Shown: one piece after another, positions 35,765 to 41,940 of the stretch
How positions within the stretch are numbered: position 1 is the first letter of the stretch
How the letters are laid out: each line of letters opens with the position of its first letter
Source of the DNA: Clostridia bacterium
GTDB taxonomy: Bacteria > Bacillota > Clostridia > Christensenellales > QALW01
Length of the DNA stretch: 53,637 bases
Direction of reading: 5' to 3'
Assembly: GCA_045536015.1 (NCBI GenBank)
Contig: JAZSMS010000007.1
Coordinates: forward strand, 1-53,637
The notes under the pieces: model-generated
What the model was told of the DNA's origin: nothing
The model's database searches: none
What the model saw: only the letters and a program-made list of their open reading frames with translations
Program-made: the position numbers and the translations under genes

Positions 35765-36895
35765 TTAAAGTCCGATAGCTTTAAAAAATTCTGTGGCACT
35801 TTTTGTCTGTTCTCTTTTAGATTTTAACGATTTTATCTTTTTTATAGAATGAGAATTATTTCCTTTAAAAATCTTTTTTAAAATTCTAACTAACCAGAAA
35901 ACAGGCAAAAGCAACGCATATTTTTTTACAGGCGGAAAAAGTTTTTCCATATCTCTTTTTTTAGGAAAAAACAATCGCAAAAGTGTCTGCTTTTCTTTTT
36001 CTTCGTTTGCTTGAGCAAAATTAGAAAAAGAGCCAAAGCTTCCTCCTCGCACTATATAATCTGCCATAGTATCAACGTCTGCATCTTCGTTTTTATCTTC
36101 CGAAAACCAAATACGCGAAAGTGCCTCTACTTTTTTAGAAAAAACTTTAAGTCCGCCTTCACGTAATAATTCTTCTCGTTTTTCTTTATCAAAACTGATA
36201 TTATTTAATAAAAACGTATCTAAAATTGCACGTACTCCGCAGCCGCCAAGTTCAAAGTGCTTGGCAAGATGCGCAATATGGTAAAAATACGTCATTTCAT
36301 CAGTTAAGCGATATTCATTTTCGCTAACCCTAATTGCGCTATCCCACACTTTTAAAAGCACTTTATTAGCATCTTTTGCGCAAGAATCTTCTATTAAGTC
36401 GTAATGAAGCTCTATTTTGATCTTGTTTGCATCAACGAATGAAACATCGTGCGTACTGCGAGAGTTAAATGCAAAACCTGCGCCTTTTGCCACTTGCTCA
36501 GCTTTTTCTATATCCTCTGACCTTACTAAAATATCAATGTCGTCGCTAATGCGCATCCATGCTTCACCATACAAATTTTTTATAACCGCGCCTTTAAGCA
36601 AAATATATGGAATATTTGCTTTTTTTAGTGCATTTGTCATATTTTCTTGCGCTTGTTGCTGCAAAATACTTTTAAAAACAGTCTTTTTCTTTTTTTGCTG
36701 TGCAATACCAAAAAGTTTGTTTTCTTCTATTTCATTTTTTTGCAAAATATCAAAAAGCAAATGTTCAAAGCCATGCCTTTTTAAAAAGGGTAGCAAACTT
36801 TCTATATCGGATGCCGAAAGGCTTTCTTTAAAATTTTCACCAACAGCAAGTTCTTTAATTTGTTTTAAAAGTTGTAATATTTTTTCGTCAATCAT
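35765..36895 (-). CDS. Nucleotidyltransferase-fold protein (resembles the uncharacterised NTP_transf_5-type family)
   Basis: 376 aa. Pol-beta-type signature ILLKGAVIKNLYGEAWMRISDDIDILV (G-[AS]-X10-13-D-x-D), followed by HYDL and a helical C-terminal half. Confidence 0.6.
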   Translation of the reverse strand: MIDEKILQLLKQIKELAVGENFKESLSASDIESLLPFLKRHGFEHLLFDILQKNEIEENKLFGIAQQKKKKTVFKSILQQQAQENMTNALKKANIPYILLKGAVIKNLYGEAWMRISDDIDILVRSEDIEKAEQVAKGAGFAFNSRSTHDVSFVDANKIKIELHYDLIEDSCAKDANKVLLKVWDSAIRVSENEYRLTDEMTYFYHIAHLAKHFELGGCGVRAILDTFLLNNISFDKEKREELLREGGLKVFSKKVEALSRIWFSEDKNEDADVDTMADYIVRGGSFGSFSNFAQANEEKEKQTLLRLFFPKKRDMEKLFPPVKKYALLLPVFWLVRILKKIFKGNNSHSIKKIKSLKSKREQTKSATEFFKAIGL

Positions 36896-36926: not shown

Positions 36927-37664
36927 TTATGCCATTCTTGCTAAAATTATCTGCTCTGCTTCGATAAGTTCTTCGGGCGTGTTAACACCGCGAATTTCGT
37001 CACCGTCAGAAATCGGGAATAATTCTACCTTATATCCGTTTACAAGCATAAGTGCAGGAACGTCAGTAAGATAATATTCATTTTGATTATTATTGTTTTT
37101 AAGTTTAGGGAGAATATTAAAAAGTGCCTCGCTATCAAACACCGCAACACCCGAATTAAGTTCAGAAATTGCATACTGCTCTTTAGTGCAATCTTTTGCT
37201 TCAACTATGCCTGCAAATTTTCCACTTTTATCTCTTGTAATTCTTCCGTAAGATAATAATTCGGGATTAACCGCCGTCATAACCGTACACGCCGCACCCG
37301 ATTCCTCGTGTGCTTTAACCAGTGCCTCCAAAGATTCGCGTCTATAAAGTGGCATATCTCCGTAGGTTACAATAACAGAGCCCTTATATCCTTCAAATTC
37401 TTTAGCGCAGCAAGCAACTGCGTGTCCGGTACCGTTTTGTTCAAGCTGTTCAATATAATTAAACTCTGATCCAAACGCTTCTATTATCTGTTCTTTTTTA
37501 TATCCAACAACGATATACGTGTCCTTTTTTTCTACAAAGCCAACAAGTTCAAGTGCTATATCAAGCAAAGGTCTTCCGCACGCCTTGTGCATTACTTTAG
37601 GACAGTCATGCTCGGCAGAGTGAAGTCTCGTTCCCTTGCCAGCCGCCAACAAAATTGCCCTCAT
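36927..37664 (-). CDS. Sugar-1-phosphate uridylyltransferase, equivalent to the GlmU N-terminal (pyrophosphorylase) domain only
   Basis: Collinear with GlmU residues about 1-230: ILLAAGKGTRL, CPKVMHK, EQNGTGHAV, VTYGDMPL, YGRI, ELNSGVAVF, NNNQNEYYLTDV. It is 245 aa long, so the left-handed beta-helix acetyltransferase half is absent. Confidence 0.8.
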   Translation of the reverse strand: MRAILLAAGKGTRLHSAEHDCPKVMHKACGRPLLDIALELVGFVEKKDTYIVVGYKKEQIIEAFGSEFNYIEQLEQNGTGHAVACCAKEFEGYKGSVIVTYGDMPLYRRESLEALVKAHEESGAACTVMTAVNPELLSYGRITRDKSGKFAGIVEAKDCTKEQYAISELNSGVAVFDSEALFNILPKLKNNNNQNEYYLTDVPALMLVNGYKVELFPISDGDEIRGVNTPEELIEAEQIILARMA

Positions 37665-37677
37665 TTTTCCTCCACAA

Positions 37678-38808
37678 TTATAATAAATTTAATTCTTTAC
37701 GTATCTTTAAAGTTATTCTTTCTATCTCGCCTGCTTTTTCTTCCATATCGGCAATAAGTTTTAACTGTGTTCTTGCTCTATCAAGATTTTGTTTTGCACG
37801 ATGAATAATATAATAAGTGTCACCGTTAATATAATCGGTTAAAAATCTTATTCCGTCTTCAATAGTAATTATTCTGGATGCCCAAGGAAGAAGTTCTATT
37901 TCTTCTTTAGTCATAATCTCGCCACAGCTTTCTAAAAAGCCGCGCGTATATTTTTCATACAATTCTAAGTTACAAGATACCCTTGATAAATCACGTTCGT
38001 CGTCACACGCAGTATTGGTACCTATGCGAAGACTGTCACCATAATCGTACAATAACGATGACGGCATAACGGTATCTAGATCGATTACCGCAACCGGCAT
38101 ATTAGTATCTTTATCAAACAAAATATTGTTTAAATTTGTATCATTATGCGTAATACGCGTTGGAATGCGGCCTTCCTCAAGTGCCGATGAAATCATCTTC
38201 ATAATTCCGGTATGGTTGCGAATAAATTCTATCTCCGGCATAACTTCATGCACACGCTCTGCATGGTCTTCTTTTATTGCCCTTTCTAAATCAAGATAAC
38301 GCGAGTAAGTATTATGAAAATTGGGTATTGTTATATTTATCTTTTTTGGATCAATATCACTAACGTCACAGATAAATTTACCAAAACTTTTACCGCAAAG
38401 ATAAAACACCTCTGGGTTTTCGGGAATATCCATCGTATAAACGTGCGAAAAATACGTCATCATTCGCCAACAACCCGTATCTGTTTTAAGATAATCTTCG
38501 CCCGACAACGTTTTGACAATCATCGGAATACTGCCCAATTTATCTCTGTGCCCTTCAAGTAAAAACTTTTCGTGTAAATGCTCTGTTATAAGCACGAAAT
38601 TTTGCATAAGAGCATCCATATCTCTGAAAACGTTTGTATTAACTCTTTGAAGTGTATATCTGTGTCGCTGACCGTCTTCAGTATACGTTTCTACCAAAAA
38701 TGTACGGTTAATATAGCCATTGCCAATATTACGTATGATTTTAACTTTTCCTTTAATTTTAAACTGTCTTGCGATAAGTTCTTTATCGCTTACAAAAACT
38801 TCGGGCAT
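37678..38808 (-). CDS. nahK: N-acetylhexosamine 1-kinase (NahK-like anomeric sugar kinase, APH fold)
   Basis: Blocks recalled from Bifidobacterium NahK: RITHNDTNLNNILFD, VIDLDTVMPSS, YDYGDSLRIG, RFLTDYINGDTYY, NLDRARTQLKLIADMEEKA. SD GGGAGA lies 6 nt before the ATG. Confidence 0.8.
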   Translation of the reverse strand: MPEVFVSDKELIARQFKIKGKVKIIRNIGNGYINRTFLVETYTEDGQRHRYTLQRVNTNVFRDMDALMQNFVLITEHLHEKFLLEGHRDKLGSIPMIVKTLSGEDYLKTDTGCWRMMTYFSHVYTMDIPENPEVFYLCGKSFGKFICDVSDIDPKKINITIPNFHNTYSRYLDLERAIKEDHAERVHEVMPEIEFIRNHTGIMKMISSALEEGRIPTRITHNDTNLNNILFDKDTNMPVAVIDLDTVMPSSLLYDYGDSLRIGTNTACDDERDLSRVSCNLELYEKYTRGFLESCGEIMTKEEIELLPWASRIITIEDGIRFLTDYINGDTYYIIHRAKQNLDRARTQLKLIADMEEKAGEIERITLKIRKELNLL

Positions 38809-39040: not shown

Positions 39041-39074
39041 CAAAAATAAACAAACCAACCATTTGGTTGGTTTG
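39041..39074 (-). terminator. Intrinsic terminator immediately after the small peptide gene
   Basis: 10-bp stem caaaccaacc (39051-39060) / ggttggtttg (39065-39074) with loop attt. A minus-strand U-rich tract follows (plus-strand ccaaaaataaa, 39041-39050). The hairpin begins 15 nt after the stop codon. Confidence 0.75.
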
Positions 39075-39088
39075 ATAACTTTTTATTA

Positions 39089-39199
39089 TTAATCTATTTG
39101 TACATAAGTAACTTCTGTCTCAGCACCAGAGCTATAATTTAAAACATCCGAAGCTTCTATCTTAATAACTTTAACCTCAGGCTTAACGTAACCTTTCAT
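39089..39199 (-). CDS. 36-aa candidate RiPP precursor peptide MKGYVKPEVKVIKIEASDVLNYSSGAETEVTYVQID
   Basis: Too short for the ORF track. ATG 39199-39197, TAA 39091-39089, SD GAGG (39210-39207) 7 nt upstream. It has its own consensus promoter and terminator. A YxxPxV motif occupies residues 4-9. It lies divergent to and adjacent to a PqqD gene. Confidence 0.7.
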   Translation of the reverse strand: MKGYVKPEVKVIKIEASDVLNYSSGAETEVTYVQID

Positions 39200-39255: not shown

Positions 39256-39284
39256 ATTATAACCTAACACCTATTAGTAGTCAA
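39256..39284 (-). promoter_or_regulatory. Consensus sigma-A promoter of the small peptide gene
   Basis: On the minus strand: TTGACT (39284-39279), a 17-nt spacer, then TATAAT (39261-39256). Confidence 0.65.
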
Positions 39285-39389: not shown

Positions 39390-39662
39390 ATGAAACTTAA
39401 AAAAGGTTTTGTTCTTCGTAAGGTTGCTGGAATGACGGTTGTTACTGCTACAGATTCTACCTGTGATTTTGATGGTATGATAACTTTAAACGAATCAGCA
39501 GAGTTAATGTGGAACAGACTTATTCTTGGTGCCACGATCTCTGACCTTGCCGACATCTTACTTAGCGAATATGACGTTGATAAACAAACTGCTATCAATG
39601 ATGCATCTGATTTTGTAAAACTTCTTAAAGAAAACGGAATTTTAGATGAAAGTACCAATTAA
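39390..39662 (+). CDS. PqqD-family protein (RiPP recognition element / peptide chaperone)
   Basis: Refined start at ATG 39390 (GGAGGA 39378-39383). The 90-aa sequence ITLNESAELMWNRLILGATISDLADILLSEYDVDKQTAINDASDFVKLLKENGIL matches the PqqD winged-helix pattern. Confidence 0.8.
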   Translation: MKLKKGFVLRKVAGMTVVTATDSTCDFDGMITLNESAELMWNRLILGATISDLADILLSEYDVDKQTAINDASDFVKLLKENGILDESTN

Positions 39663-40065
39663 TGAGCTTATCCCCTTAATTGAAGAATGTGCCGCAAATA
39701 ACGGCGCGTATTTTTCGCCTACCGGTATTAGTATGCTTCCCACTATAAAAAATGGCGATAAGGTTTTTTTGATAAAGCGCAACTTAAAAAAGAACGATAT
39801 AGTTTTTTACCGAAAAAACGGAGCAGCTACTATGCACCGCGCAATAAAGATAAATAGCGACTTTTTTATAGCACGCGGGGATAATCAATTTTGGACCGAA
39901 AACGTTAAATTTGAAGATATTATTGCCGTTGTTGACCATTATTTTCATAACGGAAAACGTATTAACTGCGATAGTTTTATATTTAAGTTTAATACTTTTT
40001 TTCTTCCCGTCACACGCGTTTTAAGACGCATTTTGCGTAAGTTTGGACTTTTAAATATTGCATAA
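39646..40065 (+). CDS. Soluble S24/S26-fold peptidase, SipW/ER-type (Ser-His) signature
   Basis: Motifs GISMLPTIKNGDKV (Ser box), ATMHRAIKI (His where bacterial SPase I has Lys) and ARGDNQ (GDN box). There is no N-terminal TM segment. Overlaps the PqqD gene by 17 nt. Confidence 0.65.
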   Translation: MKVPINELIPLIEECAANNGAYFSPTGISMLPTIKNGDKVFLIKRNLKKNDIVFYRKNGAATMHRAIKINSDFFIARGDNQFWTENVKFEDIIAVVDHYFHNGKRINCDSFIFKFNTFFLPVTRVLRRILRKFGLLNIA

Positions 40066-40086: not shown

Positions 40087-40114
40087 TTACTTACCTTATT
40101 TTTTGGAGGTTTAT

Positions 40115-41008
40115 ATGATAAGAAAAAAAACAAAAGGTATAATTCTTGCAGGCGGCAAGGGCACTCGCCTTTATCCTATGACAAAAGTTGTTTCTAAACA
40201 GCTTTTATCTGTTTACGATAAGCCACTTATCTACTATCCCCTCTCTACACTTTTCCTTGCAGGAATTGACGAAATTTTAATAATTTCAACGCCTGAAGAT
40301 ACACCAAATTATCAGCGCCTTTTAGGTGACGGTTCTTCGCTTGGTGTCCGTTTTGAATATGCCGTTCAGGATAAGCCCCGAGGTCTTGCCGATGCATTTA
40401 TCATTGGCGAAAAGTTTATTGGTGAAGATAACGTTTGTCTTGTTTTAGGCGACAACGTATTTTATGGTCAAAACTTCTCGCAATTATTATTCAAGGCAAA
40501 GGCAAACGAAAGCGGTGCAACTGTTTTTGGCTACCCTGTTTCTGACCCACGCGCTTTTGGCGTTGTTGAATTTGACGAAAACCTTAAGGTTGTATCCTTA
40601 GAAGAAAAGCCTGCCGAACCAAAGAGCCCCTACGCAGTTCCCGGACTTTATTTTTATGATAACAACGTTGTTGAAATTGCTAAAAACGTTCAGCCTTCTC
40701 CTCGAGGTGAAATTGAAATTACAGCAATTAACAACGAGTATCTTCGCAGGGGCGAGCTTAACGTTGTTTTAATGGGCAGAGGTATGGCTTGGCTTGATAC
40801 CGGTACACCACAAGGTATGCTCACTGCTGCAACGTACGTTCAGTCAATTCAGTCACTTCAGGGCTTTTATATTTCTTGTATAGAAGAAATTGCATGGCGT
40901 CGCGGCTTTATCTCTACCGAGCAATTAATGGCACTTGGCAAGGAGTTAGAATCTACCGAATATGGAAAATACATAATCAACCTTGCTATAAAGGATAGAA
41001 AATTTTGA
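40115..41008 (+). CDS. rfbA: Glucose-1-phosphate thymidylyltransferase (RmlA/RfbA)
   Basis: Refined start at ATG 40115 (GGAGG 40105-40109). Motifs [54 protein letters not shown]. No rmlB, rmlC or rmlD in the window. Confidence 0.9.
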
Positions 41009-41697
41009 TTAAAACCTATAAAATTGCCGACTTAAAATTAAATATTGACGCATCTTCAATTACCGCACGCAATGGAAAAAAATACGAGGTTGAATTTGAC
41101 CCGAGCGCTATCGAATTAAAATTTTCACCCGAAGCGGCAAAGCGTTTTATTGACGCACACCCTACTGCAGAAATTGAAGATTGGGACTATTTTTTACACG
41201 GTGCAAAATTTTCTTCACTAATGTTAGAAAACGACGGCTTTGTCTTTCACTCATCCGCCATTGCACTTGACGGTCAGGCATTTTTATTCTCTGCTAATTC
41301 AGGTGTAGGCAAATCAACGCACACAAAGCTTTGGAAAAAGGTTTTTGATGACGTTGTTTATATCAATGACGATAAGCCCGCAATTCGCCTTAAAAACGGT
41401 TTATTTTACGTCTACGGCACCCCATGGAGCGGCAAAAGCACGTTAAATTCAAACATTTGCGTTCCTCTTAAGGCAATTTGCTTTATTGAGCGTGCAAAAA
41501 TTAATTCTATCCGCAAGTTAACTCCATTTGAAGCGCTTCCCCGTTTGCTTGAACAGACGATGCGCAAAGCAGGCGAAACAAAAACTGCACGTCTTTTAGA
41601 GTTGTTAGACGTTTTATTAACAACAACACCAATATATTTATTATCATGTCTTCCCAATGAAGACGCGGCAAAACTTGCACACGATACAATGATTTAA
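41005..41697 (+). CDS. HprK-related P-loop kinase-like protein
   Basis: [28 protein letters not shown] follows the pattern of HPr kinase C-terminal / HprK-related kinases (hHAsav...G.a.lf.G.SG.GKST). TTG start at 41005 overlaps the rfbA TGA stop (41006-41008). Confidence 0.6.
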
Positions 41698-41758: not shown

Positions 41759-41775
41759 AAACTGAGGTGATTTAT

Positions 41776-41940
41776 TTGGACGTTTGCTGCATCTGTCAAA
41801 AGGAAAAGCGGGATAATCTTTACATTTTAGGAAAATTAATTTGCGATGATTGTGAGTGGCGCATTTTAAAAGCAAAGGCACATGAGAAATCCTATACACA
41901 CTATTCAAACGGTTTAAAAAAACTTATATGCCAAAAATAA
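41776..41940 (+). CDS. csfB: Anti-sigma-G factor Gin (CsfB)
   Basis: Not on the ORF track. TTG start at 41776, 6 nt after GAGGTGA. The 54-aa product is MDVCCICQKEKRDNLYILGKLICDDCEWRILKAKAHEKSYTHYSNGLKKLICQK. It aligns with B. subtilis CsfB: CVICDQEK...LY.KFICLDCE...Y.FY...LK. Confidence 0.8.
   Translation: MDVCCICQKEKRDNLYILGKLICDDCEWRILKAKAHEKSYTHYSNGLKKLICQK

Follow-up and report, generated by a model that had tools for sequence, protein, structure and literature searches.

Results

An RRE gene overlaps the gene of an anchor-less S26 peptidase

We analysed two overlapping genes on a 53,637-nucleotide contig of a Clostridia bacterium (JAZSMS010000007.1, assembly GCA_045536015.1; the whole stretch is referred to below as the window). 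The upstream gene encodes a PqqD-type RRE, the recognition element of pathways for peptides that are made by the ribosome and modified after translation (RiPPs), and the downstream gene encodes a small peptidase of the S26, or signal peptidase, type. The two genes very probably form the recognition and cleavage module of a RiPP pathway of the LPP type, that is, linear, phosphorylated, lasso-related and without a cyclase. Linear polyphosphorylated peptides (LPP), whose core gene set is lppA-K-B-S-D-N, were described by Popov et al. (Nat Commun, May 2026; PMC13381572), in whose system the recognition element is LppB and the peptidase is LppS. The features of the pair are as follows (residue numbers are those of the peptidase; the two helices come from the AlphaFold2 (AF2) model described below).

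39390–39662, plus strand: PqqD-type RRE gene, 90 aa, LppB-like (ATG at 39390, TAA at 39660–39662; Pfam PqqD)
39646–40065, plus strand: S26 peptidase gene, 139 aa, anchor-less SipW/archaeal type, LppS-like (TAA at 40063–40065)
39646–39662, plus strand: 17 nt shared by the stop region of the RRE gene and the start of the peptidase gene
39658–39699, plus strand: N-terminal helix α1, residues 5–18, INELIPLIEECAAN (AF2)
39730–39732, plus strand: codon AGT of Ser29, predicted nucleophile; same residue number as the essential S29 of LppS
39835–39837, plus strand: codon CAC of His64, predicted general base; aligned with H68 of LppS
39880–39882, plus strand: codon GAT of Asp79 in the GDN box; aligned with D87 of LppS (GD(T)N box) and with the GDN Asp of SEC11
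39898–39900, plus strand: codon GAA of Glu85, predicted third catalytic position, six residues past the GDN Asp; aligned with the essential D93 of LppS
39976–40041, plus strand: C-terminal basic amphipathic helix, residues 111–132 (AF2, hydrophobic moment)

The RRE product matches the Pfam PqqD model with 53.1 bits (E 4e-14; cut-off 23.4 bits), and its top NCBIfam matches are lasso PqqD chaperones, each under its cut-off. A first-pass annotation, made without database searches, had placed the ATG of the peptidase 17 nt inside the PqqD gene; the coordinates bear this out, and the identical 17-nt overlap is present in the orthologous locus L001 (71% identity). An in-frame TAG at 39643–39645 is the codon immediately before the ATG at 39646, so that no alternative start could lengthen the N terminus of the peptidase or supply it with an anchor.

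The peptidase carries the motifs G27-I-S29-M-L-P-T, NGD38, KKND51IVFY, M-H64-R65-A-I and G78-D79-N, and those that the first-pass annotation had picked out (GISMLPT, GD, HRAI and GDN) all lie where it had put them. It had also placed HRAI where bacterial signal peptidases have their catalytic Lys. In agreement with this, HMMER alignments to solved structures match H64-R65 with the box D Lys-Arg, the catalytic pair of bacterial signal peptidases, and with the His-Arg of human SEC11A and SEC11C. Ser29, His64, Arg65 and Asp79 are each invariant among 151 family representatives (151/151), and position 85 is Glu in 146 and Asp in two of the 151. In the SEC11A alignment Glu85 coincides with the second Asp of GDNNAVDD, which we take to be the catalytic D122 of human SEC11A. 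Both true SipW-type enzymes of the same genome have Asp at the position of Glu85. Judging from these alignments, the third catalytic position is Glu in the Clostridial branch, in contrast to Asp in LppS and in the genome's own SipW-type enzymes, and we infer a catalytic role for Glu85.

The peptidase has the S26 fold and no transmembrane segment

No transmembrane segment was found in the 139-residue peptidase: the maximum of the Kyte–Doolittle mean over 19 residues was 0.94, far under what a transmembrane helix requires, and values at the N terminus did not exceed 0.45. The absence of an N-terminal anchor, claimed from the first, thus stands. The AF2 model, computed from a 39-sequence family alignment, had a mean predicted local distance difference test (pLDDT) score of 94.2 and a predicted template modelling score of 0.85. 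It consists of an N-terminal helix (residues 5–18), a beta core (21–107) and a C-terminal helix (111–132). The family consensus over helix α1 is ELxPxIxExL, and by analogy with the published system, described below, this helix is likely the docking surface for the sheet formed by the RRE and the leader. The amphipathic, basic C terminus of the first-pass annotation was found as well: residues 118–135 are strongly amphipathic (hydrophobic moment 0.72), and the last 29 residues have a net charge of +6 with no acidic residue.

SipW-type enzymes have a C-terminal transmembrane segment where the window peptidase has its amphipathic C-terminal helix and, in the same collinear alignment, helix 5–18 occupies the N-terminal anchor region of the genome's anchored SipW-type enzymes. 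The peptidase may be soluble and cytoplasmic, but in view of the position of its C-terminal helix peripheral membrane association is also possible. LppS was poorly soluble (PMC13381572).

Foldseek searches of the Protein Data Bank with the model returned LexA and UmuD' on top (E 5e-4 to 1e-3, template modelling (TM) score about 0.5), while human SEC11A and SEC11C and the Streptococcus pyogenes protein SipA (4n31) were matched with TM scores of 0.51–0.54; over LexA/UmuD and SEC11A/C the scores ranged from 0.49 to 0.54. Since the S24 and S26 peptidases share one fold, this search confirms the clan (SF) and not the family. As the fold search scores LexA/UmuD and SEC11 alike, the family was assigned from sequence profiles and from the His base.

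Among curated models, the best matches of the peptidase were NCBIfam sigpep_I_arch with 29.2 bits (cut-off 51.85) and Pfam Peptidase_S24 with 22.4 bits; sigpep_I_bact gave 23.3 bits against a cut-off of 47. When all 39 members of the family alignment were compared with NCBIfam, 37 matched sigpep_I_arch, 22 matched SipW and two matched LexA. A better match to LexA-like S24 autopeptidases had been named in the first-pass annotation as the finding that would speak against the S26 assignment; by sequence the balance is 2/39 to 37/39 the other way, and by fold the two groups are matched alike.

The same genome (1.47 Mb, 91.75% complete) encodes two true SipW-type signal peptidases, which score 79.3 and 88.5 bits with sigpep_I_arch, above the cut-off, and have clear N- and C-terminal transmembrane segments. 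Housekeeping secretion is thus covered elsewhere. BLAST comparison of the window peptidase with the two enzymes was not significant (E 0.3 and 0.025), so that collinearity can be claimed, but recent descent cannot. Both enzymes fall under the cut-off of the Bacillus SipW model, and past their C-terminal transmembrane segments they carry Glu/Lys-rich tails of 50–90 residues (C48, L074 758–1516; C46, L076 1144–2013, minus strand). The genome has one real XRE-S24 repressor, in which a HTH_3 domain is joined to an S24 domain at 97.8 bits.

Likeness to LppS and to the published LPP system

The published LPP system is made up of a precursor, an HprK-like kinase, a discrete RRE, the archaeal-type SipW-like peptidase LppS, an MsbA-like exporter and an NTP transferase (PMC13381572). 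LppS was studied from Paenibacillus alginolyticus DSM5050 (WP_029196374.1). Deletion of lppS led to loss of the leader-processed peptide; in the PURE cell-free system, without membranes, LppS cut the precursor only when LppB was present; and the variants S29A, H68A and D93A were inactive (PMC13381572). In the AlphaFold3 model of these authors the N-terminal helix α1 of LppS lies on the sheet formed by LppB and the leader, and mutants of E6 and I10 cut poorly (PMC13381572). Peptidases resembling signal peptidase I (SpI) had, according to the authors, not been described in RiPP pathways before (PMC13381572), and our full-text literature search found no paper on the pairing of an RRE with a signal peptidase besides theirs. 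The first-pass annotation had held that the pairing occurs in no characterised RiPP pathway, a statement which Popov et al. have overtaken.

The profile of the family alignment built around the window peptidase (A2) aligned with LppS in hhalign with a probability of 98.8% and E 1.4e-16 over 111 columns, and the window peptidase itself is 29% identical to LppS (BLASTP, E 4e-7). Both proteins are about 140–150 residues long, have no transmembrane anchor, and share an N-terminal helix before G-x-S29-M-x-P, the H-R and GD(N) boxes, an acidic residue six positions further on and a basic helical C terminus. Both are encoded directly after a discrete PqqD-type RRE gene. At the level of the cluster, the window resembles the LPP clusters in its HprK-like kinase, NTP_transf_5 protein and YxxPxV precursor, and in having neither a cyclase nor a B2 protease. 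It differs from them in several ways: an LppD exporter is absent in cis, the genes of the precursor (A) and the nucleotidyltransferase (N) lie on the other strand, rmlA separates S from K, the cluster includes sugar-nucleotide genes, and the precursor is 36 residues long, compared with 72 for LppA. The dependence on an RRE and the essential Ser, His and Asp were demonstrated on LppS; for the window peptidase, at 29% identity, the activity is presumed by analogy.

Supplementary Data 1 of the same paper includes the LppS sequence and lists relatives that public databases name ‘signal peptidase I' (PMC13381572). In the rows for clusters 4 and 9 of the sequence similarity network (SSN) the neighbouring RRE is entered under ‘RRE others' and the remaining fields as ‘ND', so the Clostridial pairing was listed there but not analysed. 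We compared the window proteins with a sample of these sequences, including four members of cluster 1. The peptidase matched members of clusters 4 and 9 with E values from 3e-14 to 5e-7 (not above 6e-12 for three of the four) and members of cluster 1 with 2e-7 to 2e-4 (LppS, 3.5e-6); the best values among the sampled members were 3e-14 for cluster 4, 5e-13 for cluster 9 and 2e-7 for cluster 1. The RRE matched its counterparts in clusters 4 and 9 with E values of 1e-22 to 3e-15, compared with 0.009 for LppB of cluster 1; it is 41% identical (BLASTP, E 1e-22) to the RRE that adjoins a cluster-4 SpI in Supplementary Data 1. The compared members of clusters 4 and 9 come from Dehalobacter, Desulfosporosinus, Anaerocolumna and an uncultured Ruminococcus. 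Among the sequences sampled, the window pair does not fall into SSN cluster 1 with its ‘LPP RRE', and the peptidase appears to belong to a Clostridial sister group nearest to clusters 4 and 9. The window holds a divergent Clostridial member of the known LPP/LppS kind, the pairing itself being already published.

The pairing of RRE and peptidase is conserved

A word-indexed search returned only six relatives of the peptidase, and an exhaustive HMMER search was therefore used. It returned 7,322 representative proteins (50% identity clusters) at E ≤1e-3 and 2,037 at E ≤1e-10, nearly all of 135–170 residues and matched over their full length. Gene neighbourhoods were scanned with a narrower alignment (A1) in one genome per species, which gave 68 loci, 67 of them evaluable. 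Nearly all 68 are from gut or rumen Clostridia, with single loci labelled Mollicutes, Anaeroplasmataceae and Bacillales.

A PqqD gene lies directly upstream of the peptidase gene on the same strand in 52 of the 67 loci, with the reading frames overlapping in 43 of these 52 pairs; in seven further loci it lies within 1.5 kb, with the kinase gene in between. The pairing of the RRE with the peptidase is more than chance. Within 6 kb of the peptidase, 43 of the 67 loci have an HprK/ScmC-like kinase and 16 an NTP_transf_5 gene, and a long ATP-binding cassette (ABC) exporter is encoded within about 5–6 kb in 28. The commonest gene order is kinase, RRE, peptidase, followed by the exporter and/or the nucleotidyltransferase where present. 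This order matches the published lppA-K-B-S-D-N, and we counted it in favour of an LPP-type pathway. In eight of the 67 loci (L022, L033, L034, L036 and L053 among them, and L052 and L067) an iterated hidden Markov model (HMM) detected no PqqD gene next to that of the peptidase. In five of the eight the kinase gene stands directly 5′ of the peptidase gene, and the RRE of these loci may be elsewhere, fused, or too divergent for the iterated HMM.

The two functions are also found in one polypeptide. RRE and peptidase are encoded in a single open reading frame (ORF) of 219–221 residues in locus L078 (1267–1926, 219 aa; same-family relative G008:C25) and in P0025, and in P0053 a peptidase is fused to NTP_transf_5 in a protein of 542 residues. 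Both RRE–peptidase fusions begin with MKKYSTPDV or MQKYSKPDV, so that their own N termini bear a leader-like YxxPxV motif. The fusion gene of L078 is flanked by groEL and a nagA-like gene, and no kinase gene was found in the 3.4 kb around it. An AF2 model of this natural fusion, calculated without an alignment as a proxy for the complex, was unusable (pLDDT 52.7). A homologue of the peptidase was present in 13 of 40 relatives, none with more than 39% identity; the system is thus patchy, as Popov et al. report for Bacilli (PMC13381572).

The first-pass annotation had proposed a soluble, RRE-guided S26 leader peptidase. Homology to LppS, synteny and the fusions argue for the RRE-guided leader peptidase; the words ‘soluble' and ‘cytoplasmic', given the poor solubility of LppS, are better kept as a supposition. 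It had further proposed that the peptidase stands in place of the lasso B2 protease and, indeed, no match to the B2 family (PF13471) was found in the whole genome at its 91.75% completeness. As in lasso B1/B2 systems, a discrete PqqD-type RRE would bind a [Y/W]xxP leader and present it to a separate peptidase, and the tailoring set of HprK-like kinase and NTP_transf_5 is shared with lasso clusters. In contrast, lasso B2 is a Cys protease of the transglutaminase fold, and the published AlphaFold3 model has the SpI-like peptidase contact the RRE through a helix and not through a beta sandwich (PMC13381572). No cyclase gene was found beside the window module, the whole genome not having been searched for one.

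The precursor and a proposed order of events

The following genes of the window belong to the proposed pathway in addition to the pair.

39089–39199, minus strand: precursor of 36 aa, MKGYVKPEVKVIKIEASDVLNYSSGAETEVTYVQID, with a YxxPxV RRE-binding motif; 190 nt upstream of the RRE gene, on the other strand
41005–41697, plus strand: HprK-like/ScmC-like kinase, 230 aa, LppK-like (NCBIfam ScmC, HprK_rel_A and HprK_rel_B, all weak)
35765–36895, minus strand: NTP_transf_5 nucleotidyltransferase, 376 aa, LppN-like (Pfam PF14907, 132.1 bits)

The precursor has a conserved leader and a variable core. Compared with its counterpart in L001, MKSYVKPEVKVIKLESTDALLLSTTIDQDQIP, the first 13 residues are the same but for one and 19 of the first 23 are identical, after which the two sequences diverge, as expected for a leader with a core behind it. 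Short ORFs starting with MK.Y.KP.[VI] were found near the peptidase in about 20 other loci.

The published leader consensus is YxxPxVLxHQxIxFETxxS, with cleavage after T-1 and Tyr at -16 (PMC13381572). Applied to the Clostridial precursors, this fixed spacing would place the cut in the window at S-D-V|L, in L001 at T-D-A|L, in the L003 type at K-E-S|L, in the L018 type at A-E-V|R and in L061 at E-D-I|I. Five of six Clostridial precursor types then have an acidic residue at -2. The ungapped Tyr(-16) alignment was preferred because of this acidic residue. A gapped leader alignment, which sets IKIEA|S against VKFET|x, was also considered and set aside for the ungapped one; neither is proven.

We propose the following order of events. 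The PqqD-type RRE would bind the YVKPEV motif of the 36-residue precursor. The HprK-like kinase would phosphorylate a Ser near the start of the core, S23 and S24 being the candidates; in the published system LppK polyphosphorylates Ser3 of the core (PMC13381572). The peptidase would dock through its N-terminal helix (residues 5–18) on the sheet of RRE and leader and remove the leader, with Ser29 as the nucleophile, His64 as the base, Glu85 in the position of the third residue and Asp79 in the structural GDN box. From the published Tyr(-16) spacing, the predicted cut is between V19 and L20. The NTP_transf_5 protein may then decorate the phosphate; the corresponding nucleotidyltransferase was inactive in the published heterologous system (PMC13381572).

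Alternative explanations

Several observations weigh against assigning the pair to the LPP type. Identity to the characterised LppS is just 29%, over 94 residues, and the RRE shows hardly any similarity to LppB (E 0.001 to 0.009), both proteins being nearer to SSN clusters 4 and 9 (‘RRE others', unstudied) than to cluster 1. The third catalytic position is Glu, whereas the residue tested in LppS is Asp. After YxxPxV, the window leader departs from the motif of Bacilli. Finally, no MsbA-like exporter is encoded on the 53.6-kb contig, all 11 ABC_membrane matches lying on other contigs.

It is conceivable, though improbable, that the peptidase is an active enzyme of the cluster but has a substrate other than the 36-mer's leader junction, such as another peptide or protein, a C terminus, or a target in immunity or turnover, with the RRE working mainly for the kinase and the nucleotidyltransferase. 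The eight of 67 loci without a detected PqqD gene beside the peptidase would fit this, as would the divergence of the window leader from the FET|xxS junction of Bacilli and the finding that in lasso systems the RRE-bearing leader also serves HprK-like kinases (PMC13381572). However, deletion of lppS abolishes leader removal and LppS needs LppB (PMC13381572), the RRE–peptidase fusions tie the two proteins physically, the frames overlap in 43 of 52 pairs, and the acidic residue at -2 recurs in five of six precursor types. Still less probable is a catalytically silent S26-like scaffold which, like SipA of S. pyogenes, would only bridge the RRE to other enzymes. SipA is indeed among the Foldseek matches (TM 0.51–0.54), and Glu replaces Asp at the third position; yet Ser29, His64, Arg65 and Asp79 are invariant in all 151 representatives and Glu85 is found in 146, which is how an active site is conserved.

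An ordinary SipW-type signal peptidase I, acting at the membrane on secreted proteins and only incidentally next to a PqqD gene, is very improbable too. Enzymes of the MEROPS S26B group (SipW of Bacillus subtilis, archaeal and Sec11 enzymes) share with the window peptidase the Ser–His chemistry, the SM, H-R and GDN boxes and the S26 fold. The best curated family matches are signal peptidase I models, relatives bear that name in public databases, and the C-terminal helix is collinear with the C-terminal transmembrane segment of SipW. The window peptidase, however, lacks both the N- and the C-terminal transmembrane anchor of S26B enzymes (maximum Kyte–Doolittle mean 0.94, with a TAG closing the frame before the ATG), and it scores 29.2 bits against a cut-off of 51.85 where the anchored paralogues in the genome reach 79.3 and 88.5. 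Its partner is an RRE, in conserved synteny, and not the Sec machinery, its third residue is Glu, and LppS is active without membranes in the PURE system (PMC13381572). The least probable of the alternatives is a self-cleaving S24 protein of the LexA/UmuD kind, either a regulator or a mutagenesis factor. Such proteins have the same clan-SF beta fold, head the Foldseek matches and provide the best Pfam model (Peptidase_S24, 22.4 bits). They rely, however, on a Ser–Lys dyad, undergo self-cleavage and have a domain for DNA binding or for a partner, and the window peptidase shows none of these features: its general base is His-Arg and not Lys, Pfam finds no helix-turn-helix in it, in contrast to the XRE-S24 repressor of the genome, and the AF2 model has just a 14-residue helix before the catalytic core. 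In addition, LexA models match two of the 39 family members as against 37 for the archaeal-type signal peptidase, and the TM scores of SEC11A/C are equal to those of LexA and UmuD.

Implications of the Clostridial group

The module of RRE and peptidase is common in gut and rumen Clostridia. Before May 2026 RiPP biology did not know the combination of an RRE with the signal-peptidase fold, which is now established for one Paenibacillus enzyme; the interest of the present case lies in the extent of the Clostridial group, its Glu at the third catalytic position, the natural fusions and the sugar-nucleotide genes, which may point to the missing LPP modification. For annotation, proteins of 140–165 residues named ‘signal peptidase I' or ‘S24' that are encoded beside PqqD genes should not be taken for enzymes of secretion. 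In work on LPP, the Clostridial Glu at the third catalytic position could be useful, and the sugar-activating genes of the cluster are a concrete lead for the substrate of the nucleotidyltransferase.

It is possible, although we hold it to be rather doubtful, that the SpI–RRE modules of gut and rumen Clostridia make up a family of their own that far exceeds LPP cluster 1 in size (more than 2,000 50% identity clusters at E <1e-10), with a Ser–His–Glu triad and an amphipathic tail that is a vestigial transmembrane segment, and that the pathway in this genome has lost its exporter and gained its own supply of sugar nucleotides, from a NahK-like kinase and a GlmU-N-type transferase in the nucleotidyltransferase operon and from RmlA, translationally coupled to the kinase. 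If so, this would point to a phospho-linked sugar or nucleotide-sugar, added by LppN, as the final LPP modification, and would suggest that the product is kept in the cell or on the cell surface and not secreted.

Other genes and features of the cluster

The remaining features of the window around the pair are listed below.

40103–41008, plus strand: RmlA, glucose-1-phosphate thymidylyltransferase (TIGR01207 rmlA, 459.7 bits, over cut-off)
36927–38808, minus strand: GlmU-N-terminal-type sugar-1-phosphate nucleotidyltransferase (245 aa) and APH-family kinase (376 aa) (Pfam/NCBIfam)
39256–39284, minus strand: promoter-like site TTGACT-17-TATAAT, 5′ of the precursor gene, by consensus match (11/12)
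39051–39074: 10-bp hairpin terminator, 3′ of the precursor gene

The rmlA gene lies between the peptidase and kinase genes, and its stop codon (41006–41008) overlaps the TTG start of the kinase at 41005. The kinase orthologue in L001 matches Pfam PF27840 ScmC. The genes of the GlmU-N-type transferase and the APH-family (NahK-like) kinase are co-oriented with the NTP_transf_5 gene and lie 5′ of it; their products presumably supply a sugar nucleotide, and these built-in sugar-activation genes may point to the substrate of the nucleotidyltransferase. L001 shares the layout of the window, including the GlmU-N/APH-kinase pair, and has in addition an inserted Polysacc_synt_2 dehydratase.

A second, well conserved precursor type, MKKY.KP..(E/Q)VVEL(S/T)V(K/R)ESLSALP..., is 52–62 residues long and has a variable tail rich in Ser, Thr and Lys. 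It was found in L003 (5064–5240), L029, L030, L039–L041, L047, L049, L055, L056 and L062, and goes with the version of the cluster in which RRE and peptidase are followed by an ABC exporter, the kinase gene lying 2.8–5 kb downstream. In the window, a small ORF with two CxxC motifs (41767–41940, plus strand) follows right after the kinase gene; its counterpart in L001 matches Pfam PF10764 (Gin, the CsfB anti-sigma-G family), and it is a sporulation gene that borders the cluster.

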